Positions 39,421-62,941 of a stretch of DNA of 64,000 nucleotides are shown here, in pieces. Source of the stretch: an uncultured Gammaproteobacteria bacterium. Lineage in GTDB: Bacteria > Patescibacteriota > Patescibacteriia > UBA9934 > CAZDDW01. The stretch is from the NCBI GenBank assembly GCA_965231015.1, contig OZ246408.1:19755-83754 (forward strand), given 5' to 3'. The translations under genes and the position numbers were made by a program. Below the pieces are notes generated by a model. It worked only from the letters and a program-made list of their open reading frames with translations. It made no database searches and was not told the origin of the DNA. Within the stretch, counting starts at the first letter, position 1; the number at the start of each line of letters is the position of its first letter.

Positions 39421-39506
39421 AGCTCTTACATTATACGACACATTGACCAAAAACCAAATTCTTGGTAAGAAGAAACCTCATCAACCAACCACCAAGGAGG
39501 AATCCG

Positions 39507-40661: not shown

Positions 40662-40832
40662 GATTACAACAGGTCCTGTCCACGCCGCACCCAAAAAAGG
40701 TGTGGCCTTCTTTTTGCCTAATTTTAGTCAAAGCGTTCCGAATCGGGGTTGACAATTTCGCTAAAATATGATATAAAAATCGGTCATTTTGGCTACCTAT
40801 ACTTGTATAAAATAAGAAAGGAGGGCCGCCAA

Positions 40833-42806: not shown

Positions 42807-43108
42807 ATCGCCGGGACCCACCTATCGGACCGGGACTCCCCCAAGCGGAGCCCGGTCTTTCCGTTTTACCTACACAATCCATTTTCCTATTCGATCCAAT
42901 TAGAAAGTGGTTATCGAGACCGAAATATGCTATTTTAGAACTAGAATGATCGAGCTGAGGAGAGAATGGCATGGAACCCATCGACGGACAATAGACAGTA
43001 GGAGGAACTCATGATCCCCGAAGATGGCCAATAGACCAACCGCGCAGCGCCGTCACACGAGCAGAACATGCTCACACTCCGGTGGGCGCGTTCTGTTTGT
43101 AACAATTA

Positions 43109-43337
43109 CCGCCACTTCGAGCACGACGGAGATTAATGGACATTTTTGACCGGTTCCGACCGAAGGGGAGGAAGGACGAGGACTGTTTGAAGCCGAGCAG
43201 CTACCATAAACAACAAAAGACGCGAAGCAAGTCCCGCAGTCAAGGTTATAAAATGTTCATTACTTTACCTCCGGCGAGCGCAGAAAGGTGGCCGGTTTCT
43301 TTTTTCCGGTTTTCTTTGCCGGTCCAAAGAAAACTGG
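43109..43337 (+). repeat. Copy A of a ~230-nt repeated element (conserved small ORF MDIF(D/Y)RFRP.GR.DE.CLKPS.. plus 3' hairpin)
   Basis: Aligned by eye with copies at 50967..51193 and 58067..58293 (~80-85% identity, same orientation). Starts CCGCCACTTCGAGCACGACG and ends in a 12-14-bp hairpin. Confidence 0.7.
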
Positions 43338-43483
43338 GTTGAATAAGATCCCGGTCTTTCCGTTTGACACAGTTTAATATCTATGCTATGTTTAGCGACA
43401 GATTAACAAATTGTTGGCGGTTTTCTTGGATCTCGGAGTCGAGTCCCAATATCTAGGATTTCCGTGACGTTAAACATAAAAAT

Positions 43484-43747
43484 ATGCTCGATGCTAAAAA
43501 GAAGCAGAGAATCATTGAAAAGTATCGGACTCATGAGTCCGACACCGGTTCTCCTCAAGTGCAGATTGCAATTCTAACAACTGAAGTTGCTGAACTGACC
43601 AAACACTTAAAGGACCACAAAAAAGACTTCTCGTCTCGTCGGGGACTGATTAAAAAGGTTTCCGAACGACGACGTTTACTTAAATACTTGGACCGTGAAG
43701 ACACCAAGGCTTGTGCCAAATTGAAAGAGGCTCTAAAACTAAAATAA
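43484..43747 (+). CDS. rpsO: 30S ribosomal protein S15
   Basis: 87 aa; ..[53 protein letters not shown].. matching uS15. Confidence 0.9.
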
Positions 43748-43751
43748 AATT

Positions 43752-43778
43752 CGGCCCGCCCGAAAGGGTGGGCTTTAA
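43752..43778 (+). terminator. Terminator/processing hairpin after rpsO (GCCCGCCC-GAAA-GGGTGGGC + TTTAAAA)
   Basis: GC-rich 8-bp stem with GNRA-like loop. Analogous position to the rpsO-pnp attenuator/RNase III site of other bacteria. Confidence 0.5.
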
Positions 43779-43784
43779 AAGTAT

Positions 43785-44330
43785 ATGATCTCAAGACCAG
43801 ACCAACGAGTAGCGGTGTTCATTGACACTCAAAACATGTACTACTCGGCTCGCAATGTACACAACCGAAAAGTAAATTTTGGCAACATAGTTCGCGATGC
43901 CGTGAGGGACCGAAAACTAATTCGAGCGATTGCTTATGTTGTGAGTACAAAAACAGGTGAAGAGGCTCCTTTTTTCGAAGCTTTGCAAAAATTGGGAATT
44001 GAAACCAAAGAAAAAGAATTAATGACTTACATCTCAGGCCTTAAAAAAGCTGACTGGGATGTAGGGATTGCCGTTGATGCCATTCGGATTCTAGATATGG
44101 TTGATGTGGTGGTACTGGTCTCAGGTGACGGTGACTTTATTCCGCTGGTTGAATATATCCAAAGCCGTGGACGGATCGTAGAAAGCATGTCTTTCCGTGA
44201 AACAACCAGTACCAAACTCACCGAAGCTGTAGACAGCTTCACCAATCTTTCCGATAACAAAAGAAAATACCTGATCACTGGCGGAGGCGCAAAAAAGACA
44301 ACCAAAAAAGAAAAAAACAGAAAGTCATAA
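43785..44330 (+). CDS. NYN-domain (LabA-like, PIN-like nuclease fold) protein
   Basis: 181 aa; ..VAVFIDTQNMYYSAR.. and ..VVVLVSGDGDFIPLVEYIQSRG.. characteristic of NYN/LabA proteins. Inserted between rpsO and pnp. Confidence 0.65.
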   Translation: MISRPDQRVAVFIDTQNMYYSARNVHNRKVNFGNIVRDAVRDRKLIRAIAYVVSTKTGEEAPFFEALQKLGIETKEKELMTYISGLKKADWDVGIAVDAIRILDMVDVVVLVSGDGDFIPLVEYIQSRGRIVESMSFRETTSTKLTEAVDSFTNLSDNKRKYLITGGGAKKTTKKEKNRKS

Positions 44331-44454
44331 TCAAACGGAACCTTTACATCTTATAAATCCAATAACCATTAAAATTATTAATAATGTCACGCTTGGACAA
44401 TGAGGCTCTTTTTATAAAGAGGGTCTTGAGCCCGAGCGTGACTAAAACACGCAT

Positions 44455-46689
44455 ATGCCTACAATTGAACACTTTGAAATTGAGTGGGGTGGCAAGCCGT
44501 TAATTATTGAAACCGGCCGCTACGCCCACCAAGCCAATGCTGCTTGCACCGTGCAGTACGGAGGAACCTTGGTTTTGGCAACCGCTACCATGAGCAAAAA
44601 TAAACGCGAAGGAATCGACTGGCTTCCGCTTATGGTTGACTATGAAGAAAAACTATACGCCGCCGGTCGCATTAAGGGTTCACGCTTTATTAAGAAAGAG
44701 GGTCGACCTACTGATGAGGCAGTCTTGACTGGTCGTTCTATTGATCGAGGTATCCGACCGCTTTTTAATCAAGATATTCGCAATGAAATTCAAGTCATTG
44801 TAACGGTTCTTTCTTTTGATGGTGAAAATGATCCGGACATTCCGGGTATTGTGGCCGCTTGCACAGCCCTTCATATGTCCGATATCCCCTGGCAAGGACC
44901 TTTGGCCGGAATCCGAGTCGGACAAATTGATGGGGAGTGGGTCATTAACCCAAGTTATGAGGCTCGAGAAAAATCTGATATTGATTTAGCCTTTGCCGGG
45001 ACTAGTGAAAAAATACTAATGGTCGAGGCTGGAGCCGATGAGTGTGACGATGAAACCGTGGTTGGTGCTTTTGAATTTGGTCGCAAGCACCTCAAAAAGG
45101 TTATTGACTTAATGGAAGAAGTGAGAGCTAAGGCTGGTTCAGAAAAGGTTGATGTCATGAGTCCCACAACAGATGAAGAAGAAATTGCTCTGGAAGAACG
45201 AGAAAGAATTGTTGAGTTGGCGAAAGAATTTATTGCTAACAAAACCCAGGAATATTACTTTAGTGCTCCAAAAGCAAGCAAAAATGAACGTCGTGCCGCA
45301 ATGAATCAAATCACAGAAGAACTGGAAAAATACCTGATTGAGCAGGGGGTTGAGGAAGAAATGATTTCTTATGTCAAGGGAAAGATTTATGAACTGATTG
45401 AAGCCGAGGTTTCACGAGCCATTCTTGAGGAAAATAAAAGGGTGGACGGTCGAGCCATGGATGAAGTTCGTCAACTGGTCGTGGAAACGGGACTATTGCC
45501 TCGTGTTCATGGATCTGGCCACTTCATGCGCGGCGAAACTCAGGTTCTATCCATTATTACACTTGGTTCCCCGGGAGACGAACAAACTTTAGACGGCATG
45601 GAAACCGTGGGTACCAAACGCTACATGCACCACTATAACTTCCCACCATATTCTGTAGGTGAGGTTAAACCTATGCGTGGTCCTGGTCGGCGAGATATTG
45701 GACACGGAGCCCTGGCTGAAAAAGCCCTCATGCCGGTTATCCCTCATAAGGAGGATTTCCCATACGCCATTCGAGTGGTTAGCGAGGTCATGGGTTCAAA
45801 TGGCTCAAGCTCCATGGCTTCTACCTGTGGTTCAACCATTGCTCTTATGGACGCCGGGGTACCGATTAAAAAACCGGTTGCCGGTATTGCCATGGGGGTG
45901 GCTACCGAGGGTGACAAATGGAAGGTCTTTACTGATCTGCAGGATTTAGAAGACGGACCCGGTGGAATGGACTTCAAAATCACCGGAACACGTGACGGTA
46001 TTACAGCTATTCAAATGGACACCAAAACTCATGGTCTTGCCCACGATATTGTGGTAGAGACCTTTAAGATGGCCAAGCAAGCTCGCTTCCAAATTATTGA
46101 TGCGATTGAGGCCCAGATTAAAGCCCCTCGAAAGGAACTGTCTCCATATGCACCACGGATTATTTCCATGAAGATTAATCCGGAAAAAATCCGAGACGTG
46201 ATTGGCCCGGGTGGAAAAATGATCAATGAAATCATTGACACTACCGGGGTACATGCTATTGATATCGAAGATGATGGAATGATAATGATCACCTCGGTAG
46301 GGCAGGAACCGGCTGAAAAAGCACAGGAATGGATTGAAAACCTTACTAAAGAAGTTGAGGTTGGAGAAATCTACAAGGGTAAGGTGGTTAGATTAATGGA
46401 TTTTGGAGCCTTTGTTGAAGTTTTACCGGGTCAAGATGGTTTAGTGCATATCAGTGAACTTGCTCCGTGGCACGTTAACAAGGTCACCGACGTAGTTGAT
46501 GTTGGAGATGAGGTTTTTGTTAAAGCGATTGAAATTGATGACATGAATCGAACCAACCTTTCCATGAAACAAGCTCCTGGAAACGTTTATCAAGAACCAC
46601 CAAAGCAAAACGGCCGCCCAGACAACAAACCAAACAACAGCCGCGGCAATAATCACCGTAGCAAAGGACCACGTAGCCCTAAAAAATAG
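44455..46689 (+). CDS. pnp: Polynucleotide phosphorylase (polyribonucleotide nucleotidyltransferase)
   Basis: 744 aa; two RNase PH-like domains, KH domain (..IRDVIGPGGKMINEI..) and S1 domain (..GEIYKGKVVRLMDFGAFVEV..), plus a basic C-terminal tail. Confidence 0.95.
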   Translation: MPTIEHFEIEWGGKPLIIETGRYAHQANAACTVQYGGTLVLATATMSKNKREGIDWLPLMVDYEEKLYAAGRIKGSRFIKKEGRPTDEAVLTGRSIDRGIRPLFNQDIRNEIQVIVTVLSFDGENDPDIPGIVAACTALHMSDIPWQGPLAGIRVGQIDGEWVINPSYEAREKSDIDLAFAGTSEKILMVEAGADECDDETVVGAFEFGRKHLKKVIDLMEEVRAKAGSEKVDVMSPTTDEEEIALEERERIVELAKEFIANKTQEYYFSAPKASKNERRAAMNQITEELEKYLIEQGVEEEMISYVKGKIYELIEAEVSRAILEENKRVDGRAMDEVRQLVVETGLLPRVHGSGHFMRGETQVLSIITLGSPGDEQTLDGMETVGTKRYMHHYNFPPYSVGEVKPMRGPGRRDIGHGALAEKALMPVIPHKEDFPYAIRVVSEVMGSNGSSSMASTCGSTIALMDAGVPIKKPVAGIAMGVATEGDKWKVFTDLQDLEDGPGGMDFKITGTRDGITAIQMDTKTHGLAHDIVVETFKMAKQARFQIIDAIEAQIKAPRKELSPYAPRIISMKINPEKIRDVIGPGGKMINEIIDTTGVHAIDIEDDGMIMITSVGQEPAEKAQEWIENLTKEVEVGEIYKGKVVRLMDFGAFVEVLPGQDGLVHISELAPWHVNKVTDVVDVGDEVFVKAIEIDDMNRTNLSMKQAPGNVYQEPPKQNGRPDNKPNNSRGNNHRSKGPRSPKK

Positions 46690-46693
46690 ACTC

Positions 46694-47917
46694 ATGCCCA
46701 AGCTGGCTATTCCTTTACATGATCATAAAACAGCTCGTCGATCCCGGCGGGCTGTTTGGAAAATAGTAGGAACAATATTTTTACTTGGTTTGGTTTGGCT
46801 GGCAAGCGAAACCATCTTCACCCGCAATACTTTTGCTAGATACACACCCAGAGAGACTTCTTATACTATATTAATAGAACTAAACCAAAACAATAGAAAC
46901 GAAATTATAGGTTTGATTGGTGAAATCCAACCATTGGTTGACCGCGGACTAACTATGGGCGAAGTTCTGCCTTATGCCAAGAGTTCGGTGGCCATTTTCT
47001 TGGGTCCATCTCAAAACACACTTGGAATTAACGTTAGTTTACCTGAAGAATTCAAACGAAAATGTCAGGCTCAGAACATTAATATCACTGAACCCATCAA
47101 AGGAGTCAGCTTGCTTTCTACAAACCCAATCGAGTTAGAACAGCTGGATTATAACCTGCGTTTGATCGACCAACTTGACCCTAGAGGTGTTGGTTATGTT
47201 ATTCATCACCAGACTGGTGAACACCGAGTGATGAGTATAAAGGAAAAAGCGTTCGGATATTCCATACAAACCAATGAACCATCAACAGACACAGTTCTAG
47301 CGAGCGTACCGAGTAAAGCAGGGTTGGCTCTGGCAATTGCTCCGGAACCTGAAACAATAAAAGTTGTAGAAGACATTTTTTCAAGCCTGGCAACAGACTT
47401 TGTTAAATCTATCTTACATGAACTAAAAAACCACGGAGGAACTGTTTACGCCAGTGATTTAACCTTAAACGAGGTAAGTTTCGAGATAAATCGAGCAATT
47501 CCTAAAGAAAACTTGATAAATATTCATAATTACTATGAAACCGGTCTTTCAGCAGATATCACGATCTATCAACTACCTGATAATACTTTAGTATACGAAA
47601 TATTACAGCTTAAGCCAGAAATAACAGGTACCTGGACCCAAGAAGGGGATTCGAGTTCATATGAAACCAAGCATTTGATGAGCATGGTGTCCTCTAATCA
47701 AACTACAATCACCAATCATAACCTTGACCTTGACCCAATCGACAATATTTGCTCAATTCAGCCATCAGCCTTGTTTTTTCCACAAAAAAGCCTTGAACCA
47801 GAATCCTTTCTTTATATTTCAGATAGTTTAGACATGTTTTTGAATTCAATGGAAAATTTTGTCGAGGTTGGTCTAGACAATTATGCTAAAAATCAGGTCA
47901 TAAGACTGTGTAAATGA
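46694..47917 (+). CDS. Hypothetical membrane-anchored protein
   Basis: 407 aa; one N-terminal TM helix (IVGTIFLLGLVWLASETIF), no recognisable domain. Begins 5 nt after the pnp stop. Confidence 0.5.
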   Translation: MPKLAIPLHDHKTARRSRRAVWKIVGTIFLLGLVWLASETIFTRNTFARYTPRETSYTILIELNQNNRNEIIGLIGEIQPLVDRGLTMGEVLPYAKSSVAIFLGPSQNTLGINVSLPEEFKRKCQAQNINITEPIKGVSLLSTNPIELEQLDYNLRLIDQLDPRGVGYVIHHQTGEHRVMSIKEKAFGYSIQTNEPSTDTVLASVPSKAGLALAIAPEPETIKVVEDIFSSLATDFVKSILHELKNHGGTVYASDLTLNEVSFEINRAIPKENLINIHNYYETGLSADITIYQLPDNTLVYEILQLKPEITGTWTQEGDSSSYETKHLMSMVSSNQTTITNHNLDLDPIDNICSIQPSALFFPQKSLEPESFLYISDSLDMFLNSMENFVEVGLDNYAKNQVIRLCK

Positions 47918-48299
47918 TAATTCTGTGGATAAATTGCTGATATTATCCTCATTTATTCACAGTCGAACACAAAATTTATACACAATAATAAATCAGTCTA
48001 AATATATAGGCTGTTTTTTGTCATAATTTAGCCTAATATCGTAGATTGACTTTTTCGGTATTTTATGGTATTATATGTACATACCCTTCAGAAGTTCTTT
48101 ACACACATTTCAGATTTCAGGGAGATTTTGCGAAAGTCCCCACACTTTCGCAAAACATCCCACACTTCTACTTCTTTGTTGCGCGTCCAAAAATAAAAAC
48201 AAAAGTAAAAGCACTCGGTCAGCTGACAACCAAACAACCGTCATATGGTTGCCGTCAGTAAGACCAAAAAGAGGTAGGAGCGTATATCTGTACTTGACC

Positions 48300-48449
48300 C
48301 AGGGTTCGCAATTCCGAGCGCGTGTAGTGCTGATTTATGTCAGTAGTACAGGCGCCCGGAAGAGCTTGAGCCTAAAAAATGGGTCTCTCACTAGAGGGAC
48401 ACCGCACAAAATCTCTTATAAGGGCGGCAAATGTCCCTCTTTTTTTTTG
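48300..48449 (+). ncRNA. Candidate small structured RNA ending at a strong terminator (identity unresolved; weak resemblance to SRP-RNA helix 8, ..CAGGCGCCCGGAAGAGCTTGAGCC..)
   Basis: A 600-bp gap (47918-48522) without a convincing ORF. The last ~150 nt contain CCGGAAG...AGCC and end in a 10-bp-stem terminator with T9. The 5' end is not defined. Confidence 0.2.
48393..48449 (+). terminator. Strong rho-independent terminator (AGAGGGAC...GTCCCTCT + T9)
   Basis: 8-bp outer stem with an internal CCGC/GGCGG sub-helix, followed by nine T residues. Confidence 0.75.
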
Positions 48450-48522
48450 CACAATTTTTACCTTGACAAAACAGTAATTCAGTACTAAAATGACATAACT
48501 AAGTCGATTTAACTTCAATCAT

Positions 48523-48897
48523 ATGGACCAGGATTTTGTAGACAAAATGAAGGAACAAATGCTGGAAGAAAAAAAACGTTTAGAAGAAGAGTTGTCACGT
48601 TTTGCTCATCGTAATAAAAAAGCCACACAAACCGATTATGATGCCGATTATGAAGATATGGGAGACAAAGAGGATGAAAACGCGGCTGAGGTGGCTCGTT
48701 ACTCAGATAATTTGTCACTTGAAAACGCTCTTGAAAAGGCTTTGCGTGATGTGGAAGCAGCATTGGAACGTGTCGACAAGGGTGATTATGGCGTGTGCAA
48801 ATATTGCAAATCTGAAATTTCTGAACAACGCCTGACCGCGCGACCGACTTCTTCGGCTTGCATACAATGTAAAAAGACCCTGACACAAGAGGTGTGA
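48523..48897 (+). CDS. DksA/TraR-family C4 zinc-finger protein
   Basis: 124 aa; N-terminal coiled-coil, C-terminal CKYC-x17-CIQC zinc finger. Confidence 0.7.
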   Translation: MDQDFVDKMKEQMLEEKKRLEEELSRFAHRNKKATQTDYDADYEDMGDKEDENAAEVARYSDNLSLENALEKALRDVEAALERVDKGDYGVCKYCKSEISEQRLTARPTSSACIQCKKTLTQEV

Positions 48898-49346
48898 AGA
48901 TAAATCCATTGGCAATTGGAATCATTGCTGGTGTTCTGGTAGTAATCGACGAGGTGTTTAAATATTTAGTATTATCAAGACTTCCTGAAAATGGGAGTCT
49001 TATTGGTAATAAATTTTTTGCCCTTGGTCTACACAAGAACTTCGGCATTGCCTTCAACCTACCATTGAATTTACCTCTGGTGATTATTATCACCATTCTA
49101 CTGATCATAATTTTTGGCATCTTTATCAGTAAGCACTATCAAACCCAACCCAGATTAGCTTCAGGATGTTTATTGATTATTCTTGGAGCAATCGGTAATC
49201 TATTTGACCGGATTATTTATGGATTCACAGTTGATTACTTAATTTTTTTCACCCGTTCAGCCATCAATCTCTCGGATGTTCTCATCGTTGCTGGAATTGC
49301 TTGGTTGATCCTTGGCAACCGATCGAATATATCTAAAAATCCATAA
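48894..49346 (+). CDS. lspA: Lipoprotein signal peptidase II
   Basis: 150 aa, four TM helices, conserved ..GAIGNLFDR.. and ..FTVDY.. / ..NLSDVLI.. motifs. The start overlaps the dksA-like stop. Confidence 0.8.
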   Translation: MKINPLAIGIIAGVLVVIDEVFKYLVLSRLPENGSLIGNKFFALGLHKNFGIAFNLPLNLPLVIIITILLIIIFGIFISKHYQTQPRLASGCLLIILGAIGNLFDRIIYGFTVDYLIFFTRSAINLSDVLIVAGIAWLILGNRSNISKNP

Positions 49347-49404
49347 ATCTTGAAATTTAGAAATAATTTATGACTCCCCGTTGTAATAATTATTGGGAGT
49401 TTTT

Positions 49405-50928
49405 ATGTCTCAAAAAATTCAATCCGCCACTATTATTGGGCTACAGGCCGAACTCATTGAGGTCGAGGCTTCATCCAGTATGGGAATGACAAACTTTTTC
49501 CTGGTTGGTCTTCCTGATACGGAAATTAAGGAAGCTCGAGAACGAGTACGAGCCGCCATCAAAGCGTCTGGTTTACCATTTCCCAGGGGACGAATCATTG
49601 TTAACCTGGCCCCGGCTCGAGTCAAAAAGACCGGCACACATTTTGATATACCGATCGCCCTTTCCTTGCTCTCAAGTCTTGGCGAGCTTGAACTAAAAAA
49701 GACCAAGGATGCGTTGTTCATGGGCGAGCTCGGACTCGACGGCACCGTACGACCAATCACTGGTGTCTTGATTGCTGCCTTGGCAGCCCGAGATCATAAC
49801 ATAAATACAATTTACGTTCCTGAAGCTAACGTTAATGAGGCCAGTATCGTCAAAGAATGCCGAGTTTATCCAATTAAAACCCTGGCTGGGTTAGTTCGAC
49901 ACCTAAACGGGGAAGAGGAGATCAAACCAGCCGAGCCCCAACGGTTCTCGATCCAAGAATCAACCAAACATAAATTTGACATGGCTGACGTGCGCGGGCA
50001 GGAGTACGTGAAAAGAGCGCTTGAGATTGCCGCGGCCGGTGGACACAACGTCTTGCTGAATGGGCCTCCGGGCTCTGGCAAAACCTTGCTCGCAAAAACC
50101 TTTGCCTCAATTTTGCCTGAACTCAACCTGCCCGAAGCTTTGGAGGTGTCAAAAATTTATTCGGCAGCCGGACTCGTTGAGGAGGGAAAGCCTTTGGTGG
50201 CCACCCGACCGTTCCGCCATCCGCACCACAGCGCCTCAAGTGTTTCGATTGTGGGTGGCGGCGGATGGCCGCGTCCAGGAGAGATCAGTTTGGCTCACCG
50301 CGGGGTATTGTTTATGGACGAATTCCCTGAATTTCCACGCCACGTCCTTGAAACATTACGCCAACCTCTTGAAGACGGGATTATCACGGTGGCTCGAGCC
50401 GCCGGCACATTTACCTTCCCGGCCAAGTTTATGCTACTTGCGGCCATGAACCCGTGTCCGTGCGGTTTCGCGAGCGACCCGGACAAACAATGTGTTTGTA
50501 CCCCACGACGACTAGTTGATTACAGCAAGAAAATCTCAGGACCGCTTCTCGACCGCATTGATCTTGGAGTGGAGGTTCCAAAAGTAAAAACCGAGGCTTT
50601 AATGCGCGATGAACCGGCTGAAGCTTCGGACGTAATTCGAAAACGAGTAAAAGCCGCGCGAATGATCCAACACGAGAGACTAAACCAGCACAACATCTTT
50701 GTAAACAGCGAGATGTCGAGTCGGCTCATTAAACAATTCTGCCCACTAAACGACGCCGGATCAAAATTACTTGAACAAGCGATCAAAACCAAGCATTTAT
50801 CTGCCCGAGCCTACACTCGAGTTCTCAAAATATCTCGCACTATTGCAGATCTCGCCGGAGAAGGTATGATTGCGCCCGAGCATATTCTCGAGGCGCTTCA
50901 GTATAGACCCAAAACGGCTGAACTGTAA
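49405..50928 (+). CDS. comM: Mg-chelatase-like AAA+ ATPase YifB/ComM
   Basis: Start at MSQKIQSATIIGL. N-terminal Lon-protease-like ChlI domain. Walker A (GPPGSGKT) and Walker B (..VLFMDEFPEF..). Conserved C4 cluster CPCG...C.C. Confidence 0.9.
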   Translation: MSQKIQSATIIGLQAELIEVEASSSMGMTNFFLVGLPDTEIKEARERVRAAIKASGLPFPRGRIIVNLAPARVKKTGTHFDIPIALSLLSSLGELELKKTKDALFMGELGLDGTVRPITGVLIAALAARDHNINTIYVPEANVNEASIVKECRVYPIKTLAGLVRHLNGEEEIKPAEPQRFSIQESTKHKFDMADVRGQEYVKRALEIAAAGGHNVLLNGPPGSGKTLLAKTFASILPELNLPEALEVSKIYSAAGLVEEGKPLVATRPFRHPHHSASSVSIVGGGGWPRPGEISLAHRGVLFMDEFPEFPRHVLETLRQPLEDGIITVARAAGTFTFPAKFMLLAAMNPCPCGFASDPDKQCVCTPRRLVDYSKKISGPLLDRIDLGVEVPKVKTEALMRDEPAEASDVIRKRVKAARMIQHERLNQHNIFVNSEMSSRLIKQFCPLNDAGSKLLEQAIKTKHLSARAYTRVLKISRTIADLAGEGMIAPEHILEALQYRPKTAEL

Positions 50929-50932
50929 TCAA

Positions 50933-50965
50933 AGGGGCAACCACAAGGGTTGCCCCTACACCGTT
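50933..50965 (+). terminator. Terminator hairpin after comM (GGGGCAACC-acaa-GGTTGCCCC)
   Basis: Perfect 9-bp stem. The T-run is weak (TACACCGTTT). Repeat copy B starts 2 nt later. Confidence 0.45.
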
Positions 50966-50966
50966 T

Positions 50967-51193
50967 CCGCCACTTCGAGCACGACGTGGGTTGATGGACA
51001 TTTTTTACCGGTTCCGACCGAATGGGAGGGATGACGAGAACTGCTTGAAGCCGAGCGCCCACCTAAAAAACAACCAGCGCGAGGCAAGTTCTGCAGTCAA
51101 GGTAAAAAATGTTCATTAATAACCTCAGGCAAGCGCAGAAAGGCGGTTGGTTTCTTTTCTTGCTTTTCTTTGCCAATCCAAAGAAAAGCAAAC
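50967..51193 (+). repeat. Copy B of the ~230-nt repeated element
   Basis: Same start (CCGCCACTTCGAGCACGACG), internal ATGGACATTTTT.. small ORF, and terminal hairpin TTGCTTTTCTTTGCC-AAT-CCAAAGAAAAGCAA. Confidence 0.7.
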
Positions 51194-51600
51194 TGTAATA
51201 TACTTGACCTTTTGAACGACTTATTATAATGTAGGACGTTCGGTTCCAAAAACCGGAAAACCTATATGAACATGATGCTTACGCACAACAAGAAAACACC
51301 CTTTGTTGGGGATGTCTCTGGGGCTATTGCTCCAGGTTTGGTTGGGCGTTTTCTAAAAATAAGTATGCATTATGTTTAAATTTTAACTTGTTTTTAGGAA
51401 AGGCCCGGCCATAGTGCCGGGTCTTTTGATTCAATTGAATACTCGAAACCTCGCTCGAGCTAAGCCGAGGGTTGGTTAAGTGTGTTCGAACAATGAATCA
51501 AAGCTTAGGTCCTTAGCACCTAAGCATCTTGTTCACTGTTTGGGTGGTGCGGAAGCATAAGGCGACTGTGCCACCTGGACGTAATCTAGGAATTTGTCTT

Positions 51601-53346
51601 ATGAACGAATTCGCAGAATTCTGGTTGAAGCTCTGGAAACTAATCCGACCCTACAAGCGTTCGCTTGGGTGGACCGCTGTTTCTATTCTGATAGTTCAAA
51701 TTCTGATCCTGGTTGATCCGTACCTTTTCAAACTGATCCTTGATGAGTTCCAAAATTGGGGACCTGGATCAAACAAAACGATCCTCTGGTTGATTGGTGG
51801 TGTGTTCATTACCACATGGGTAATCACCGCAGTCAACAATGTTAAACACAGGAACATCTTCAAATCCCTCTTGATTGTGGAACGTGAAGTTCCTAGTCGG
51901 TGCATGAAAAAGCTACTTGATCTATCCTTCGGTTATCATCTGCGTGAAAACACGGGTGGAAAGATGGGCAAGATCACTCGTGGAACCCACAAGCTGATCG
52001 ACATCCTGGCTTTCATCATGTTCGATGTTGTTCCGACTCTGATTGAGATTGTTCTCGTTGGAATAGTGATCTTGACTTTGAACTGGTTGGTGGCCCTAAT
52101 TTTCCTGGCTGCTATCCCGCTCTACCTAGTCCAAGTTCTGTTCACAGAACGCAAAATTGGACCAATGCGGAGATTACGTCACGACCGATACGAAGCAGCT
52201 GACCACATGATGACGCAAGCGATTGTAAACGTCTCAAGCGTACAGTCGTTCGCTCAAGAGCAAGGTGAGTATGACCGTTTCTATTCCCTGAAAGAAAAAA
52301 TCTTCAAGGATGAAATGGCTGAATGGATTTGGCAGATCAACTTCGACTGGTTCCGAGCCGGGGTCATTAACGTGGCTCAGGTAGCAGTACTAGCCGTCTC
52401 TGTTTGGCAGGTGAGTAATGGGAACATTTCAATGGGTTCATTGGTACTGTTCCTAATCCTTTCAAACAAAGTCTACTTCTCAATCTACAAACTCTCACGG
52501 CTTTACGAGAAGATTGCTGATGCTAGTGAATCTGTTTCAAGGCTCATCAACATCCTCAACGAACCGGTTGAGATTGAGTCAAACAAGAACGCGATAAATC
52601 CAGAGATGATCGAGGGCAATATTGCTTTCGAAAATATTTCGTTTTGTTATCCAGAAACCAACAACGGAATCCATGGACTCAGTCTGGAAATCAAATCCGG
52701 TGAAACCGTTGGGCTTTGTGGCCCATCAGGTGGCGGTAAGAGCACCTTGGCCCGGCTTGTTCCACGTTTCTACGACGTTTGCTCTGGTTCAATCCAGATT
52801 GATGGAGTAGACGTGCGCGAGCTAGACCTTCGGTACCGACGCCACATCGCTGCCGTGCCACAAGAAGTTGAAATCTTCGATGGCACCATTGCGGACAACA
52901 TCAAGTATGGTTGCCCGAGCGCAACCGATGCTCAGGTTCGTGATGCAGCCAGAGTGGCTAACGTGGATGAGTTCGTTGAGAAGCTCGAGCATGGTTACAA
53001 AACCGTGGTCGGGGAACGCGGTCTTAGACTCTCTGGGGGACAACGCCAACGGGTGGGTATTGCTCGCGCGATTCTCACCGACCCCGCCGTGTTAATCTTT
53101 GATGAAGCCACTTCTCACCTTGACCCAATCAGTGAAGAACTAATCCAGGAATCTATGAAGGAACTTATGGGTACCCGAACGATTCTTATCATCGCCCATC
53201 GACTTTCCACGATCCAAGACGCTGACCGAATCGTGGTTCTGGACGAAGGAAGAATCAAAGAGCAAGGTACTCACAAAACCCTTATGTCTCGCGGTGGGCT
53301 TTACCATGAGCTTGCCACGTGCCTGGCAACAGACACTTCAACCTAA
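51601..53346 (+). CDS. ABC exporter, fused permease + ATPase (MsbA/lipid-A-exporter-like)
   Basis: Start at MNEFAEFWLKLWKLIRPYKRS (family-typical). Six TM helices. Walker A (GPSGGGKST), signature LSGGQRQR, Walker B (ILIFDEATSHLD). Confidence 0.85.
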   Translation: MNEFAEFWLKLWKLIRPYKRSLGWTAVSILIVQILILVDPYLFKLILDEFQNWGPGSNKTILWLIGGVFITTWVITAVNNVKHRNIFKSLLIVEREVPSRCMKKLLDLSFGYHLRENTGGKMGKITRGTHKLIDILAFIMFDVVPTLIEIVLVGIVILTLNWLVALIFLAAIPLYLVQVLFTERKIGPMRRLRHDRYEAADHMMTQAIVNVSSVQSFAQEQGEYDRFYSLKEKIFKDEMAEWIWQINFDWFRAGVINVAQVAVLAVSVWQVSNGNISMGSLVLFLILSNKVYFSIYKLSRLYEKIADASESVSRLINILNEPVEIESNKNAINPEMIEGNIAFENISFCYPETNNGIHGLSLEIKSGETVGLCGPSGGGKSTLARLVPRFYDVCSGSIQIDGVDVRELDLRYRRHIAAVPQEVEIFDGTIADNIKYGCPSATDAQVRDAARVANVDEFVEKLEHGYKTVVGERGLRLSGGQRQRVGIARAILTDPAVLIFDEATSHLDPISEELIQESMKELMGTRTILIIAHRLSTIQDADRIVVLDEGRIKEQGTHKTLMSRGGLYHELATCLATDTST

Positions 53347-53385
53347 AACCAGCCGGCTCTCCGTGAGCCCGGCTGGTTTCTTATT
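53347..53385. terminator. Bidirectional terminator (AACCAGCCGG-ctctccgtgag-CCGGCTGGTT + TCTTATTC)
   Basis: 10-bp stem located between the convergent ABC exporter gene and the zinc-ribbon membrane-protein gene. Confidence 0.55.
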
Positions 53386-53392
53386 CATGATC

Positions 53393-53794
53393 TTATACTA
53401 CGTATCGTGCTATTAGGTAAGCACCTACAAGAATCGAGATCCAAATTATTCCAATAGCATCCAAAATACGCATGCGAGTCCTGAACTCTTCCCAAGACCC
53501 CCAACCTCCGGCGCGCCAGGACAGTTGGCGGCCAAACAGAACCATGATGATCAAAGCGGCAATTCCAACCACCGGAATTAAAGAAAGCAAGAACCAAAAA
53601 TAAAGCCTAGACCCGAAAGTAAATCCTTGGGTGAAGAAAAGGGCTCCCAGCGACGGACCGCGCAGATAGCGAGCCTGAGTTTTTTCAGATGGCTCAATAA
53701 TAATATTAAAACCACAGTGTTTGCACTGTTCCTGTAATTCTTTTACTGCCTGTTTACAATCTGGGCAAGACTTATGATCGAGTTCTTTTTTCAT
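53393..53794 (-). CDS. Zinc-ribbon plus membrane-domain protein (hypothetical)
   Basis: 133 aa; N-terminal CPDC...CKHC zinc ribbon followed by 3 TM helices. Confidence 0.5.
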   Translation of the reverse strand: MKKELDHKSCPDCKQAVKELQEQCKHCGFNIIIEPSEKTQARYLRGPSLGALFFTQGFTFGSRLYFWFLLSLIPVVGIAALIIMVLFGRQLSWRAGGWGSWEEFRTRMRILDAIGIIWISILVGAYLIARYVV

Positions 53795-53849
53795 GAATCT
53801 ATTATATCAGAAAAGCACCGATTAGGGTGCTTTTCATTGTTATTTCAAA

Positions 53850-55190
53850 TTATCGAATGTAACTCAATGGATTGCGAGTGCTGCCATTCACCCGAACCTC
53901 AAAGTGAAGGTGAGTTCCGGTTGATCTACCGGTCGTACCACAAACTCCAAGGTCTTGTCCGGCACCAACGGTCTGTCCGGCACTTACCGCAATAGAAGAA
54001 AAATGTCCATAACGGGTCACCATGCCGCCACCATGGTCAACATCAACCATTAATCCATAACCACCATTCCATCCGGCGTAAGTTACTACTCCGGAGTTAG
54101 CGGCATAGTTGTGGTTAGTGTAACCACAGTCAATATCAAGTCCACCGTGGCTCCAACCATAGTACTGAGTAATAACACGCAAGTCTGATGGCCAGACCCA
54201 ACCACCGGTTGAACCGGAATAAGTTCCGGAATAAGTTGAAACACCACTGCCACTTGAAGCCGAGCTACCAGATGATGAAGTGGTAGCCGCTGAAACAACG
54301 GTTCGTTTAATTCCACCGGGCAAAATTAATTCCTCACCGACCACAATGTCATTCGAGTCAGCCAAAGCATTAAAGGCAATGATATCTTCCGTCTCAACTT
54401 CGTATTCTTTAGCAATTTCAAGCAGGGTTTCTCCAGAAGTTACAGTATGTAAAATACCGGTTACCGGCGGAATCTTCAGTTCATCTCCGGGACGAATATA
54501 ACTCCAAGTTCCAAGACCATTAGCCCAAAGCACGGTCGAGGTACTCACCCCAAATTTCTCCGCAATCGAACTAACTGTGTCGCCGTCCTCCACCACGTAA
54601 GACTCCACTTCTGTTCGCGGAGCAATACTTTCACCCCCCTCCTGAATGGTAGGGCTGACCAACGCTCCGCCACCAAGAGTGGTAATGTGTGACTCTTCAA
54701 AAGTAAGATCATTCATGTAACTAGTTCCGTCCATCAAGCCTTCACCCAAGTAACTAGTCGGTTCAGGTTCTCGAATCTCAACCGCTGACACTTCTTCTAC
54801 CAAATATGAATCATCATTAGCTACCAAAGCATATAAAGTGCTACGCTCACCAAAATTTTCCGCCCTAACTTCTGAACCACTAAAGTTGACCGCACTGGCA
54901 ACAAGAGCGACAGCCACAATAGCAAAGTGAATTGCAAATCGATTTGAAAACATGTATAGGAAACGCTCTCGAGCCGGCAAATACAGTTTTGAGGCTTGGC
55001 GTCGTCCGGCAAACCATAACCGCAATGCACGCACTGCGAACGGACGAACAAAAAATCGTCCAAACCAACGCACCGGAGTAAACACAAGGCGCAAAGTAGG
55101 ACGAATCTTCTTCTTTAAAACCACCATCGCACCTAAAAAAGCGAGGGCAAATCTGATTCCAAATTGTTTTAAAGTAAGTTTGATATACAC
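53850..55190 (-). CDS. M23-family metallopeptidase with two LysM domains
   Basis: N-terminal TM segments. Two LysM repeats (..YVVEDGDTVSSIAEKFGVSTSTVLWANGL.. and ..HTVTSGETLLEIAKEYEVETEDIIAFNAL..). C-terminal M23 motifs (..GLDIDCGYTNHNY.., ..HGGGMVTRYGHFSS.., ..GTTGRSTGTHLHFEVRVNG..). Confidence 0.85.
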   Translation of the reverse strand: MYIKLTLKQFGIRFALAFLGAMVVLKKKIRPTLRLVFTPVRWFGRFFVRPFAVRALRLWFAGRRQASKLYLPARERFLYMFSNRFAIHFAIVAVALVASAVNFSGSEVRAENFGERSTLYALVANDDSYLVEEVSAVEIREPEPTSYLGEGLMDGTSYMNDLTFEESHITTLGGGALVSPTIQEGGESIAPRTEVESYVVEDGDTVSSIAEKFGVSTSTVLWANGLGTWSYIRPGDELKIPPVTGILHTVTSGETLLEIAKEYEVETEDIIAFNALADSNDIVVGEELILPGGIKRTVVSAATTSSSGSSASSGSGVSTYSGTYSGSTGGWVWPSDLRVITQYYGWSHGGLDIDCGYTNHNYAANSGVVTYAGWNGGYGLMVDVDHGGGMVTRYGHFSSIAVSAGQTVGAGQDLGVCGTTGRSTGTHLHFEVRVNGSTRNPLSYIR

Positions 55191-55285
55191 CTCTCGGGAA
55201 ACCTGATCAAACTGGAGCAGCGACGGTCGGAATAGCCTGTTTTCATGCGTTTTCCAAGCTGACAGTTTTCAGGATTACGGGGAGT

Positions 55286-55314
55286 AATATAGCAAAAATG
55301 CCGTATTTAGTCAA
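55286..55314 (-). promoter_or_regulatory. Sigma70-like promoter (TTGACT -17- TATATT on the minus strand) for the M23 peptidase gene
   Basis: Reverse complement reads TTGACTaaatacggcatttttgcTATATT. Four GTCAA/TTGAC half-sites nearby, including the palindrome GTCAAAcaTTTGAC at ~55319-55334. Confidence 0.4.
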
Positions 55315-55341
55315 TGGATCGTGTCAAACATTTGACTAATT

Positions 55342-55971
55342 TTAGATATTTTTGTCAAACAAAGTTGGAAGAAAGGGTCTAAAATTCATGCGGTGTATTG
55401 GACATGGACCATACTCGGAAATAGCTGACTCATGATCCCGGGTTCCATACCCTTTATGCTTAGCAAAACCGTATTCTGGGTATTTCTCCTCATACTTTAT
55501 CATAATCCGATCCCTGGTCACTTTGGCAATCACTGAAGCTGCGGCAATCGACTTTACGGTCCGGTCTCCCTTGATGATTCTTTTTTGAGGAAGTGTAATT
55601 CCGGGCACCAAATATCCGTCTACGAGCACATAATCTATTTCACTAATCTGCCCAAGCGCCCGACGCATGGCCAAAAAAGTGGCTTGTCTTAGGCCAAAAG
55701 TCTCAATCTCAGCCACAGACGCTTCAGCTACCCCACACGCCTTAGTTTTGCTTAAAATTTGCGGATACAGCTCCTCCCGTGCTGCCGGACTCATTAATTT
55801 CGAATCTTTTACCTTAGCCAGGCGTGAATTTAAAGGAAAAATCACTGCTGCGGCCACTACTGGACCGGCTAATGCACCACAACCCGCTTCATCAACCCCA
55901 ACGATTGCGGTATATCCAGCCTTAATAAGAGATCGCTCCTCTTGAAATGTTGGGGATGAAGGAATTGACAT
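55342..55971 (-). CDS. rnhB: Ribonuclease HII
   Basis: 209 aa; ..[23 protein letters not shown].. (DEA catalytic motif) and overall RNase HII pattern. Confidence 0.9.
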
Positions 55972-55993
55972 AATGGTATACTACCACTATTAT
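55965..55993 (+). promoter_or_regulatory. Sigma70-like promoter (TTGACA -17- TATTAT) for the pyrophosphatase gene, embedded in the rnhB 5' end
   Basis: Explains why the ORF track's upstream-extended start (55973) is unlikely. The real ATG is at 56024. Confidence 0.45.
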
Positions 55994-56023
55994 AATACCG
56001 TTCTAAAATTAAACTCGCAAAGT

Positions 56024-58015
56024 ATGAGTATTACACTCTATGCAGTAATTGCCGGAGTGCTCGCAATCCTATACGGTGCCGCCTTGGTCCGATGGATTAT
56101 GAAGCAACCGGCCGGTGAGGGAAAGATGAAAGGCATCGCCCTTGCTATTCAAGAAGGCGCTAACGCCTACATGGCCCGCCAGTATACCGTTATCGGTTGG
56201 ATTGGTGTGGTTGTTTTTTTAACTCTTGGTTTCCTTTTAAACTGGACCATTGCCCTTGGCTTTTTAGTTGGAGCAATCTTTAGTGGAATTGCCGGAGCCA
56301 TTGGAATGTCGGTTTCAGTTCGGGCTAACGTTCGAACTACTGAAGCCGCTAAAAAGGGAATGCTGGAGGCACTGGCCGTGGCCGTGCGCGGAGGAGCTGT
56401 GACCGGATTCTTTGTGGTGGGTCTTGGGCTTCTCTCGGTTGCCGGATTTTTTGCTATCACCGGAAACGTTGATGCCTTAATCGGACTCGGCTTTGGTGGA
56501 TCTTTAATCTCCGTTTTTGCTCGACTCGGTGGTGGTATCTTTACCAAGGCCGCTGACGTGGGAGCAGACCTGGTAGGAAAAGTTGAGGCCGGAATTCCAG
56601 AGGACGATCCGCGTAACCCGGCCGTGATTGCTGATAACGTTGGTGACAACGTAGGGGACTGTGCCGGAATGGCCGCTGACCTTTTCGAGACTTATGCTGT
56701 GACCATGGTAGCCGCCATGTTCCTTGGAAAACTGGCTTACGGTGACGTAACTGCTGTTCTTGAATACCCACTGGCTCTTGGAGCTGTCGCAATTTTGGCT
56801 TCCATTATTGGAGTCTGGTTCATTAAGCTGGGCCCTAAAAAGAACATCATGGGTGCTCTTTACAAAGGACTGATTGTGTCAGGTGGATTGGCTGCAATTG
56901 CTTTCTACTTTTTAACCAACTGGATGATGAAAGACATTGTTGGGCTTGACCCAATGAGCTTATTCTATTCATCTCTGGTTGGACTTGCCGTTACTGCAAT
57001 CTTGATCGTTCTGACTGAATATTACACCGGAACCGAATATTCACCAGTTAAAAAAGTAGCTGAAGCGTCCCAAAACGGACACGGAACCAACATTATTTCT
57101 GGACTGGCACTTTCCATGCGTTCAACCGGTTGGCCGGTGCTGGCCATTGCGATTGGAATTCTGGCCGCTTTCAGTTTTGCTGGACTTTATGGAGTTGCCA
57201 TTGCTGCTGTGGCAATGCTGTCTCTGACCGGAGTGATTGTGGCGATCGACGCTTATGGACCTATCACCGACAACGCCGGTGGAATCGCTGAAATGGCAGA
57301 ACTCCCTAGTGAAGTTCGTGACATCACTGACCCACTCGATGCGGTTGGAAACACCACCAAGGCGGTAACCAAAGCTTACGCCATTGGATCAGCCGGACTT
57401 GCTACTCTGGTCCTGTTTGGTTCATATACTGAAGAACTTATGAAATTTGGACAAGAGTTCCATTTCTCCCTAACCGACCCAATGGTAATCGCCGGGCTCT
57501 TTATTGGTGGGCTTCTACCATTTGTCTTTGCGAGTTACGCCATGGAAGCGGTTGGAAAGACAGCTGGTAAGGTCGTAGAAGAAGTGCGCCGACAGTTCCG
57601 CGAAATCAAGGGAATCATGGAAGGAGAGGCTAAACCTGACTATGGTAAAGCTGTAGACATCGTTACTCGCTCAGCGATTAATCAAATGATCGTGCCCGCC
57701 CTTATTCCCGTGCTTGCACCGCTCGTGATTGGACTTATCCTTGGACCGGTTGCTCTCGGAGGTGTGTTAATTGGTTCAATCGTCACCGGACTATTCGTGG
57801 CTATTTCTATGACCACTGGTGGTGGGGCTTGGGACAACGCTAAGAAGTATATTGAAATGGGAAACTTTGGTGGAAAGAAATCAGCCGCCCATGACGCTGC
57901 TGTGACCGGTGACACGGTGGGGGATCCGTACAAGGACACTGCTGGTCCAGCCATCAACCCAATGATCAAGATTCTGAATATTGTTGCATTGCTCATCGTT
58001 GCCTTGATTGTGTAA
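56024..58015 (+). CDS. hppA: Membrane-bound proton-translocating pyrophosphatase (V-type H+-PPase)
   Basis: ~663 aa, ~16 TM helices, diagnostic motifs ..[20 protein letters not shown].., ..[21 protein letters not shown].., ..[18 protein letters not shown]... Confidence 0.95.
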
Positions 58016-58034
58016 AAAGCAAAATTGATATTAA

Positions 58035-58063
58035 AGCAGGACTCGAAAGGGTCCTGCTTTTTG
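58035..58063 (+). terminator. Rho-independent terminator after hppA (AGCAGGAC-tcgaaag-GGTCCTGCT + T5)
   Basis: Perfect 8-9-bp stem plus T-run. Repeat copy C begins 4 nt later. Confidence 0.7.
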
Positions 58064-58066
58064 GTT

Positions 58067-58293
58067 CCGCCACTTCGAGCACGACGGAGGTTAATGGACA
58101 TTTTTGACCGCTTCCGACCGAATGGGAGGAATGACGAGGATTGTTTGAAGCCGAGCACCTACCTTAAGAATATAAGGTGCGAGGCAGGTTCCGCAGTCAA
58201 GGGAAGAAATGTCCATTATCTACCTCCGGCGAGCGCAGAAAGGCGGTTGGTTTCTTTTCTTGCTTTTCTTTGCCAACCCAAAGAAAAGCAAAT
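58067..58293 (+). repeat. Copy C of the ~230-nt repeated element
   Basis: Same architecture as copies A and B. The ATG of the small ORF (ATGGACATT) is complementary to the downstream AATGTCCAT, with a covarying G·U pair in copies A and B. Terminal hairpin TTGCTTTTCTTTGCC-AAC-CCAAAGAAAAGCAA + TGGTTTTT. Confidence 0.7.
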
Positions 58294-58347
58294 GGTTTTT
58301 CAAACAGAAACGCCCCACGGGTCGAGTGACTCATGGGGCAGGGTGGG

Positions 58348-58980
58348 CTAGTCGTGGAAGATCTTGGCGTCGTCGCGGTCATCGCGCTCGCGCATCCGCT
58401 TGTACCAACTGTGGTAGAACGGGGCAACGATGATCGTGATGAGAGTGAGTGTAAGAAAGGAACCGAGGAGCAGACCGTGACGAACCAGAGTGTCCGAGGT
58501 CTTGTCGAAGAAGTACGAAACGATTGCCACTACCGTGATGGATAAGAGCCATCCGGTCAGGTAATCGATCGGGAACCAACCAAAAACCCAGCAACTCTTG
58601 GCGTGCCACCACACGGTTTGAGGACGGAAGTTCCAAATCGTGTAGTGGGGATTCAGGACAAACCAGAGGAAATCCCACAGCGGACACCATGCCAAGTACA
58701 GGGCCACGGTGAGCAACTCCTGTTCGAGCGACCAATCCACACCCATCACGAACGGGGAGTGAAAGACCACCAAAGGTAAGAAGAACATGAAGGCGTGGTA
58801 GCCAGTCAACGGCTTACCGCCGAGAAACAAGCCATAAACCCGTGCCACCAGACCTTGCGTCCGATACCAGGTTGGCATCTTCTCGGCCCAGCCGTACTTA
58901 CCCTCGCTTTCAATCTCCACCAGGGCGAAGATGACAGCCAAAGCAAACCAGAACAGAGCCATTCCAAATACGTCCGTCAT
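58348..58980 (-). CDS. Trp-rich polytopic membrane protein (hypothetical; GC-rich, codon-atypical)
   Basis: 210 aa, ~6 TM helices, many Trp/Phe, acidic C-terminal tail. GC content well above the flanking housekeeping genes. Sits immediately beside repeat copy C. Confidence 0.5.
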   Translation of the reverse strand: MTDVFGMALFWFALAVIFALVEIESEGKYGWAEKMPTWYRTQGLVARVYGLFLGGKPLTGYHAFMFFLPLVVFHSPFVMGVDWSLEQELLTVALYLAWCPLWDFLWFVLNPHYTIWNFRPQTVWWHAKSCWVFGWFPIDYLTGWLLSITVVAIVSYFFDKTSDTLVRHGLLLGSFLTLTLITIIVAPFYHSWYKRMRERDDRDDAKIFHD

Positions 58981-62599: not shown

Positions 62600-62941
62600 T
62601 TATCCAAAAACAGGGGTTTTCTTTAATAGTTTGGAAACGGCTTGTTTGAGCTCGTCCGGGGTCTTTCCCAAAGCCTCCTTCTTCACCACTAAAACAAGAT
62701 CATACCCGGACCTGGCTTCATCCAGGCGCAAACGAATCATTTCCCGAATTTGCCGGCGCAAACGATTACGTACTACTGCCTTTTTTGAAACCTTGGTACC
62801 AACCACCACCGCAAACCTTGATGAACCAAGGCCATTCTTGGCCCACTTGGCACCACACACAGAACCAAAAGCCCCCTCCTTTGAACGGAAAAGGGAGCGA
62901 AAATCTTGATCTCTTTTTAATCGATTTTCCTTGGGCAACAT
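62600..62941 (-). CDS. rnpA: RNase P protein component
   Basis: 113 aa, basic; ..LKRDQDFRSLF.. and ..AVVRNRLRRQIRE.. RnpA motifs. Its start codon abuts the rpmH stop. Confidence 0.9.
   Translation of the reverse strand: MLPKENRLKRDQDFRSLFRSKEGAFGSVCGAKWAKNGLGSSRFAVVVGTKVSKKAVVRNRLRRQIREMIRLRLDEARSGYDLVLVVKKEALGKTPDELKQAVSKLLKKTPVFG

Follow-up and report, generated by a model that had tools for sequence, protein, structure and literature searches.

A structured, apparently non-coding and probably mobile repeat in an Uhrbacteria-like genome and a sister species

We analysed a 64-kb stretch of DNA (hereafter the window) that carries three copies of a repeated element of ~230 bp, here named A, B and C; further loci outside the window are labelled with L-numbers. 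With fair though far from full confidence, we regard the element as a lineage-restricted, non-coding and non-autonomous structured mobile module, present in this Uhrbacteria-like genome and in a sister species. A sequence-only reading of the window had listed a mobile element, a small-protein or toxin cassette and a structured RNA as possibilities. Sites that are empty in relatives, two target duplications and copies at other loci in the sister species support the first of these, and a conserved, strand-specific RNA-type fold with no match in Rfam supports the last; the two readings are probably two sides of one thing. Homologues of PNPase and DnaX place the host in the Patescibacteria (Candidate Phyla Radiation, CPR), near Candidatus Uhrbacteria, with a genome of ~1 Mb.

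The three copies (A, 43109-43337; B, 50967-51193; C, 58067-58293) are direct repeats on the + strand, as the sequence-only reading had described them, with pairwise identities of 83-87% (estimated by eye as ~80-85%). A profile search of the whole window with nhmmer recovered them with E-values of 1e-77 to 1e-82 and detected no copies besides these three. The common start (CCGCCACTTCGAGCACGACG) and the common internal stretch at which a reading frame had been proposed to begin (ATGGACATTTTT) are present in all three, and each copy has a hairpin of 12-13 bp as its 3' end (12-14 bp as first described). Including an optional 5' hairpin, the element reaches ~265 bp. About 85 kb of the ~1 Mb source genome was examined, and the three copies in it all lie inside 15 kb; 7-8 kb of housekeeping genes separate successive copies, and the neighbour genes of different copies share no homology. 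Contigs from two independent sequencing runs in Logan (SRR7048225 and SRR7048221) matched the window with 100% identity over the junction between comM and B, and the right flanks of A and C were likewise matched at 100% from inside their 3' ends outward. One contig spans from 43305 (inside A) to 51161 (inside B), and another begins at 58247 (inside C). Because the contigs of both runs match the window and end or start inside the repeat, as they should at a true repeat, the copies are not an artefact of assembly, an outcome that the sequence-only reading had allowed for.

We next compared the insertion sites with the corresponding positions in four relatives (L136, L138, L139 and L153), whose PNPase is 73-78% identical and whose gene order is the same. 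The position upstream of rpsO, where A lies, was empty in all four, and the position between comM and the leader of an ABC transporter, where B lies, was empty in three of them (L136, L138 and L139). When both insertions were deleted in silico, the window became collinear with the relatives. The insertion at site B, verified against the empty sites, comprises 261 bp (50930-51190) between 9-bp direct repeats; in the relatives, a TGTAA motif stands immediately 5' of the -35 box of the ABC-leader promoter, and in L139 this motif contains the comM stop codon. The inserted DNA starts with a 37-nt hairpin module, which precedes the core in B and in L120 and was found nowhere else in the sequences compared. 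At site A, likewise verified, 483 bp (42867-43349) are inserted between 16-bp direct repeats, at a place where the relatives have a terminator followed immediately by the rpsO promoter. Copy A forms the 3' half of this block, and the 242 bp at its 5' side resemble no other sequence among the window and the related loci compared. Copy C appears, from its sequence, to sit inside the T-run of a terminator-like hairpin behind hppA. For the sister-species copies L120 and L122, no flanking duplication beyond chance was detected.

These comparisons revise the earlier view that each copy was inserted directly after a terminator. The hairpin that had been taken for the comM terminator (50933-50957) belongs to the insertion, because the comM stop codon of the relatives adjoins the next promoter, so the view does not apply to B. 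It holds at best for A and C; at A, too, the inserted block includes the hairpin that immediately precedes the core, and it is the left duplication that represents the tail of the native terminator. In general, the insertions occupy gaps between transcription units, after a stop codon or terminator and before the next promoter, and in five of five copies the element has the orientation of the upstream gene.

To look beyond the window, metagenomes were scanned with two invariant blocks of the element. Four true loci were obtained, which represent two new copies, L120 (identical with L125) and L122 (identical with L128), so that the wider search for homologues suggested by the sequence-only reading brought the family to five distinct copies, three in the window and two in the sister species. 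The flanks of L120 and L122 are unrelated to the window, and the loci are non-orthologous. The dnaX gene at L128 encodes a protein 88% identical to that of the window genome, indicating that this locus comes from a sister species; between the two species, third codon positions of dnaX are 58% identical and four-fold sites 47%. In contrast, L120 and L122 are 90-91% identical to copy A, which is above the identity of A to B or C in its own genome, and the five sequences fall into two subfamilies, A/L120/L122 and B/C. An element identity of 90-91% despite 47% at four-fold sites therefore implies either strong constraint over the whole length or recent movement between species. The copy number is low, with at least three in the source genome and at least two in the sister species, and a covariance-model search of 385 kb of related loci found no divergent copies beyond the five.

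Searches of reference collections did not connect the element with a known family. The Rfam scan proposed by the sequence-only reading gave no match for the three copies at the gathering score or at E<=10, apart from chance matches to hairpins of the microRNA type. Scanning of a genome collection with a GC-rich 19-mer (CGCCACTTCGAGCACGACG) returned 110 matches in high-GC genomes, all of which are attributed to chance because nhmmer aligned only the seed. Viral contigs, searched with three patterns, and phage and plasmid collections yielded nothing beyond two chance 19-mer matches, both in viral contigs (L111 and L112). An exact look-up of hppA returned no record.

The surroundings of the sister-species copy at L128 were also compared with those of the next relative (L144). 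The element stands at the 3' end of an orphan gene of 261-266 aa with 57% GC (L128 4033-5226, compared with L144 9662-9980), and gene and element together occupy the place of a hairpin-rich spacer of ~320 bp in L144. They may have arrived as one block, judging from this arrangement. An 8-bp repeat around the block (TTATTTTA) was considered as a duplication and rejected, being expected by chance and out of register with the break in homology.

The consensus fold of the five copies is a Y shape (a three-way junction) followed by a 3' hairpin. Nucleotides 1-43 pair with 137-184 to form an irregular closing rod of ~40 bp with invariant internal loops, and none of the five copies differs in alignment columns 1-20. 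Both arms of the junction are hairpins, the shorter at 45-67 and the longer, which has a variable A-rich tip, at 74-134; 3' of the rod, a U-rich linker (185-199) leads to the 12-13-bp hairpin (200-229). Across 77 pairs (385 cells), 95.8% were standard pairs, compared with 38-46% when the partners were slid. Double changes were present at nine pairs (15 cells), and none of 500 shuffles reached the observed pairing or covariation. The folding z-score of copy C was -6.4. G·U cells outnumbered A·C cells (23 versus 7), and the + strand was more stable than the - strand by 4-11 kcal/mol in all five copies, so the fold, as modelled, is that of the + strand. Two details proposed from the sequence proved sound: the compensatory change at the base of the 3' hairpin is real (alignment A3, columns 200/229 and 202/227), and the stretch around the start codon of the proposed frame does pair with the downstream ATGT(C/T)CAT, forming helix 3. 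Taken over five sequences in two clades, the compensatory changes are suggestive, not proof, that the predicted Y-shaped fold is maintained.

Within the 3' domain (columns 185-230 of alignment A3; in copy C, 58247-58292 of the window), two U-rich 5' arms in tandem (CCGGTTTCTTTT and CCGGTTTTCTTT) compete for one A-rich 3' arm, and the loop of the 3' hairpin is complementary to the first U-rich arm, at the start of the linker. All alternative pairings of this domain survive the switch from CC/GG to UU/AA between the subfamilies, and the domain may, on the modelled pairings, have two states. Together, the GC-closed rod and the UUUCUUUU behind it look like a large terminator. The tail of copy A (GTTGAATAAGAT) shares its first five nucleotides, GTTGA, with L120 and only GTT with L122.

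Conservation of this kind could instead mean that the copies are a small family of true RNA genes, that is, paralogues of a trans-acting or protein-binding small RNA kept by purifying selection, with occasional duplication and incidental mobility. The whole-length conservation of 90-91% between species with saturated neutral sites would be expected of such genes, as would invariant internal loops, compensatory changes, a strand-specific excess of G·U pairs and a low copy number. However, no conserved promoter was found in the family, in which similarity sets in sharply, either at CCGCC or with the 5' hairpin module, and four of the five copies lack a canonical terminator at the 3' end of the element. 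Together with the non-orthologous loci, the flanking target duplications and the absence from close relatives, these features make RNA genes, in our assessment, an unlikely explanation, though one to be taken seriously.

We then examined the coding potential, since the sequence-only reading had proposed a conserved open reading frame (ORF) with a third-position bias. The frame starting ATGGACAT is open for at least 68 codons in A and C and has a stop at codon 42 in B; in L120 a +1 indel leads to MDIFDRFRLFKEE-stop, L122 is equally short, and both end at codon 14, so that the frame is not conserved. Over codons 1-25, the sites that vary among A, B and C are distributed 5/2/7 over the three codon positions, and seven of ten changed codons alter the amino acid, which does not bear out the bias. 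A comparison of the copy-C ORF with 5.8 billion predicted proteins revealed no homologue. On these grounds, the element appears to be non-coding. A gene of 101 aa called across the element in L149 is spurious.

A small-protein or type I toxin-antitoxin cassette, with a peptide MDIF(D/Y)RFRP.. and a start codon sequestered in a helix, can draw on the fact that in all five copies the ATG is preceded by GGAGG and buried in helix 3. Yet the GGAGG is only 3 nt from the ATG, and both are themselves strands of helices. The frameshift and early stops that truncate L120, L122 and B, downstream frames that differ between copies, variable sites without a clear coding pattern and mostly non-synonymous, and the lack of a match among the predicted proteins largely refute this cassette, which we regard as scarcely credible.

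As to how the element moves, a classical miniature inverted-repeat transposable element (MITE), or an element of the single-stranded DNA type (PATE/REPIN-like), mobilised by a transposase encoded elsewhere, was considered. The element is indeed small, non-coding, intergenic and present in multiple copies, its core forms a long, imperfect palindrome that has hairpins close to the ends, and it has a 9-bp duplication at B, a length that some DDE transposases produce. The window also holds a candidate enzyme, a Y1/IS200-like gene at 25166-25726. However, the ends of the inserted units at B (50930../..51190) and A (42867../..43349) are not reverse complements, inverted repeats being confined to internal helices, and the two verified duplications differ in length (9 and 16 bp); for these two reasons we consider a DDE-type MITE unlikely, and the earlier suggestion of a MITE fails in the strict sense. 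The likeness to MITEs extends to target duplication, absence from the orthologous sites of relatives and the need for an enzyme in trans, but the element lacks terminal inverted repeats, has duplications of 9 and 16 bp (perhaps also 5) and has no known parent insertion sequence. HUH/Y1 elements are not known to make a target duplication. The Y1/HUH route is also unlikely because duplications exist and because the CAACCTTGCAGGTTG palindromes on either side of the Y1 gene bear no relation to the element and are absent near it. Taken together, movement by either kind of transposase seems very improbable.

The Y1 gene itself encodes a RAYT-like transposase of 186 aa (25166-25726, - strand) and lies among TGCAAGGTTG and CAACCTTGCAGGTTG palindromes (at 25560, 25734 and 25802). 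A related 22-mer (GTGCAAGGTTGAAATGTTTCAC) is present upstream of dnaX in relatives (L144 9882-9903) and at the broken end of a source-genome contig (start of L142). These palindromes look like a separate REP-like repeat system, as far as sequence comparison can tell, and no link between the element and this transposase or its palindromes was found. In common with REPIN and PATE, the element is hairpin-rich, has a strand-specific structure, lacks inverted terminal repeats and has a RAYT-like gene in the same window (PMC3116915). It differs in having target duplications and unrelated palindromes, since REPIN and PATE are not known to leave a duplication and their hairpins match those flanking the transposase gene.

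Another route is RNA-mediated, resembling that of a retroposon or short interspersed nuclear element (SINE): reverse transcription would act on a read-through transcript with the conserved Y-shaped 3' module at its end, and the copy would be inserted at staggered nicks, carrying variable upstream sequence with it. Several features agree with this, namely the lack of terminal inverted repeats, duplications that vary in length (9, 16 and perhaps 5 bp), an orientation that is always that of the upstream gene, and a one-strand RNA fold constrained over its full length. The 3' part is constant, while the 5' part is a 37-nt hairpin in B and L120, 242 nt of unrelated DNA in A and neither in C, and such a route would account for "transduced" 5' sequence, possibly including whole upstream genes as in L128. 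Nevertheless, no reverse transcriptase is present in the ~64-kb window or in the fetched loci, for which reason we treat this as a minority reading. Only two duplications are verified and two copies have none, the 5' differences could stem from separate events, and, to our knowledge, no retroposon or SINE-like class of elements is established in bacteria; all told, an RNA-mediated route is improbable. The comparison with eukaryotic SINEs is by analogy only: both combine a structured 3' part that is constant with a 5' extent that varies, show target duplications of variable length, lack inverted repeats and depend on machinery in trans, but the element has no reverse transcriptase partner that we could find, no internal promoter and no A-tail. 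We know of no bacterial counterpart of SINEs.

Known repeat classes offer partial parallels. In its functional behaviour the element resembles structured intergenic repeats of other bacteria, such as ERIC, Correia, RUP and REPIN (PMC3116915). The ERIC/IRU repeats of enterobacteria and similar repeats (Correia/NEMIS, RUP and BOX) are non-coding, 100-250 bp long, intergenic and transcribed, and lie near stop codons, terminators or promoters. In repeats of the ERIC type, an imperfect palindrome with an RNA fold takes up most of the length; related species share these repeats, which can act on the 3' ends of mRNAs. The present element is likewise non-coding, structured, intergenic and conserved between species. 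It differs in having no sequence similarity to them, a Y shape plus a 3' hairpin instead of a simple hairpin, a very low copy number, a duplication that is not a fixed dinucleotide, a variable and optional 5' segment and a CPR host. ERIC and NEMIS have themselves been named as unexplained repeat classes (PMC3116915). A second parallel comes from group II introns of class C (IIC), which are retroelements found inserted immediately behind intrinsic terminators, in the direction of transcription (PMC4424553). Copy A and, apparently, copy C similarly lie in the T-runs of terminators and are co-oriented with the upstream gene; however, 230 nt is much too short for such an intron, the element is target-duplicating, and B is not at a terminator.

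Other candidates were dropped. A group II intron was rejected because the element has none of the domains, no Rfam match even at E<=10 and a length of 230 nt, and because it starts with CCGCC and not GUGYG. For an integron attC site, the core sites RYYYAAC/GTTRRRY were not consistently at the boundaries (by eye), the copies are 7-8 kb apart, and the nearby tyrosine recombinase gene (38476-39450) is also found at the matching position in relatives that lack the element. 6S RNA gave no Rfam match, and the consensus fold is a three-way junction, not a rod with a central bubble. Along with attC and 6S RNA, a template or variable repeat of a diversity-generating retroelement, a retron, an S15 leader and a single-strand replication signal were set aside, the collective grounds being no nearby reverse transcriptase, substitutions that are not adenine-specific (by eye), and wrong boundaries or architecture.

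We return to the mobile structured module as the favoured explanation. Under it, transcription of the upstream gene would run on into the element, which would extend that mRNA at its 3' end; at site B, comM lacks any other terminator. Selection or the copying machinery would recognise the RNA fold and not a protein, and, by analogy with other structured intergenic repeats, the element probably acts as a 3'-end structure, either a terminator or a barrier to exonucleases. Machinery acting in trans would copy it, and we infer that classical DDE transposases, which use inverted repeats, and HUH transposases specific for hairpins are both to be discounted. With a structured 3' part that is constant, a 5' part and duplications that vary and a fixed transcriptional orientation, the element fits copy-and-paste through RNA or through circular DNA joined at microhomology.

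Several points weigh against this explanation. Target duplications are clear in two of the five copies only, and their lengths differ (9 and 16 bp). The high identity between species could reflect recent transfer and not selection. A copy number this low is atypical of selfish repeats and could also be that of a small family of functional RNA genes. Covariation rests on few independent events, because there are only five copies in two subfamilies. Finally, no autonomous partner or insertion enzyme was identified in the ~85 kb of source genome read. The features of the copies and their insertion sites are compiled in Table 1.

Table 1. Coordinates of the element, its parts and its insertion sites in the window (CM, covariance model).
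Feature	Position	Strand	Remarks
A, left 16-bp direct repeat CCCGGTCTTTCCGTTT	42851..42866	.	3' half and T-run of native terminator of 685-aa gene
A insertion, 5' part	42867..43108	+	242 bp; ends in own hairpin (43057-43100) just before core
Copy A, conserved module	43109..43349	+	CM 252.6 bits
A, Y-shaped core	43109-43291
A, U-rich linker	43292-43306
A, 3' hairpin	43306-43337		followed by short tail GTTGAATAAGAT
A, right 16-bp repeat CCCGGTCTTTCCGTTT	43350..43365	.	abuts/overlaps rpsO promoter -35 box (TTGACA at 43364)
B, left 9-bp target duplication AACTGTAAT	50921..50929	.	holds comM stop codon
B, 5' hairpin module CAAAGGGGCAACCACAAGGGTTGCCCCTACACCGTTT	50930..50966	+	inserted DNA; common to B and L120
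Copy B, core and 3' hairpin	50967..51190	+	CM 246.1 bits; 3' hairpin 51160-51191
B, right 9-bp target duplication AACTGTAAT	51191..51199	.	just upstream of ABC-leader promoter -35 box
hppA terminator-like hairpin and T-run	58033..58060	+	directly upstream of C; terminator read by eye
C, possible 5-bp target duplication TGGTT	58062..58066 and 58293-58297	.	candidate, from sequence only
Copy C	58067..58292	+	CM 259.2 bits
C, closing rod	58067-58109 x 58201-58246
C, hairpin P2	58111-58132
C, hairpin P3	58139-58198
C, U-rich linker	58247-58260
C, 3' hairpin	58260-58291
ATG-initiated frame proposed earlier, copy C	58094..58348	+	not conserved in family; treated as non-coding

Further observations concern the insertion sites and their neighbourhood. 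The 5' part of the A insertion contains two 27-nt direct repeats (42970-42996 and 43010-43036), each with a Shine-Dalgarno-like run followed by a mini-ORF of 7-11 codons that ends in CAATAG. In L138 (16451-17460), the spot just after comM that B occupies in the window holds a different RAYT-like gene with GCGGCAGCCCTCGCTGCCGC palindromes, and the gap downstream of comM seems to be a recurrent landing place. The window genes are of the housekeeping type: genes for MopE-motif proteins, rpsO, an NYN-domain gene, pnp, lspA, comM, the conserved leader with its ABC transporter, an M23 peptidase gene, rnhB, hppA and tig, followed by rnpA and dnaA. The GC-rich neighbours of A had been taken for foreign genes, but the syntenic genes of the relatives are GC-rich too, and the idea of foreign cargo was rejected for this site. 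Three of the window genes (4157-5443, 39462-40661 and 40749-42806) encode a Cys-rich family with the MopE motif (DGDG..C) and exceed their surroundings in GC by 8-13 points; because the syntenic position in relatives shows the same bias, the difference is one of base composition and does not point to foreign DNA.

The leader upstream of the ABC transporter gene (leader, 51200-51528; gene, 51529-53346) has a promoter TTGACC...TATAAT and a conserved ORF of ~37 aa (MNMMLTHNKKTPFVGDVSGAIAPGLVGRFLKISMHYV), then a hairpin and a T-run, and can be aligned with L136, L138 and L139. Its ORF may encode a leader peptide or the precursor of an exported peptide. The 5' leader of rpsO (43393-43483) is conserved across five Uhrbacteria relatives (GGCG..GAGCCCC..CTCGGA..GCGACGT) and is a candidate S15 autoregulatory structure; Rfam gave no family at the gathering score anywhere in the window, this leader included. 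A giant ORF of 4559 aa on the - strand (5935-19614) contains internal repeats of 220-300 nt with 93-99% identity (12333-12859, 15521-15820 and 17115-17336). At the right end of the window, rnpA is followed by dnaA-dnaN (62600-64000, L146), so that oriC probably lies in this region. The GC skew is close to -0.1 from 1 to 40 kb and close to 0 from 40 to 64 kb, the part in which the + strand holds most genes; this shift may reflect an inversion adjoining the origin.

Small non-autonomous structured repeats are a recognised general type, and in the literature searched we found none described for this lineage. In practice, the element breaks short-read assemblies of these genomes and yields spurious ORF calls, such as the one in L149. 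Its insertion signature, which combines the absence of inverted repeats and variable duplications with a variable 5' part and a constant structured 3' part, fits no standard small bacterial mobile element. Genomes of CPR/Patescibacteria are ~1 Mb in size, compact and with few repeats. In such genomes, the spread of a non-coding module that is kept ~90% identical across species therefore points to one of two things, a functional RNA or a selfish element under unusual constraint. Demonstration of an RNA intermediate would make the element a new class of prokaryotic retroelement.

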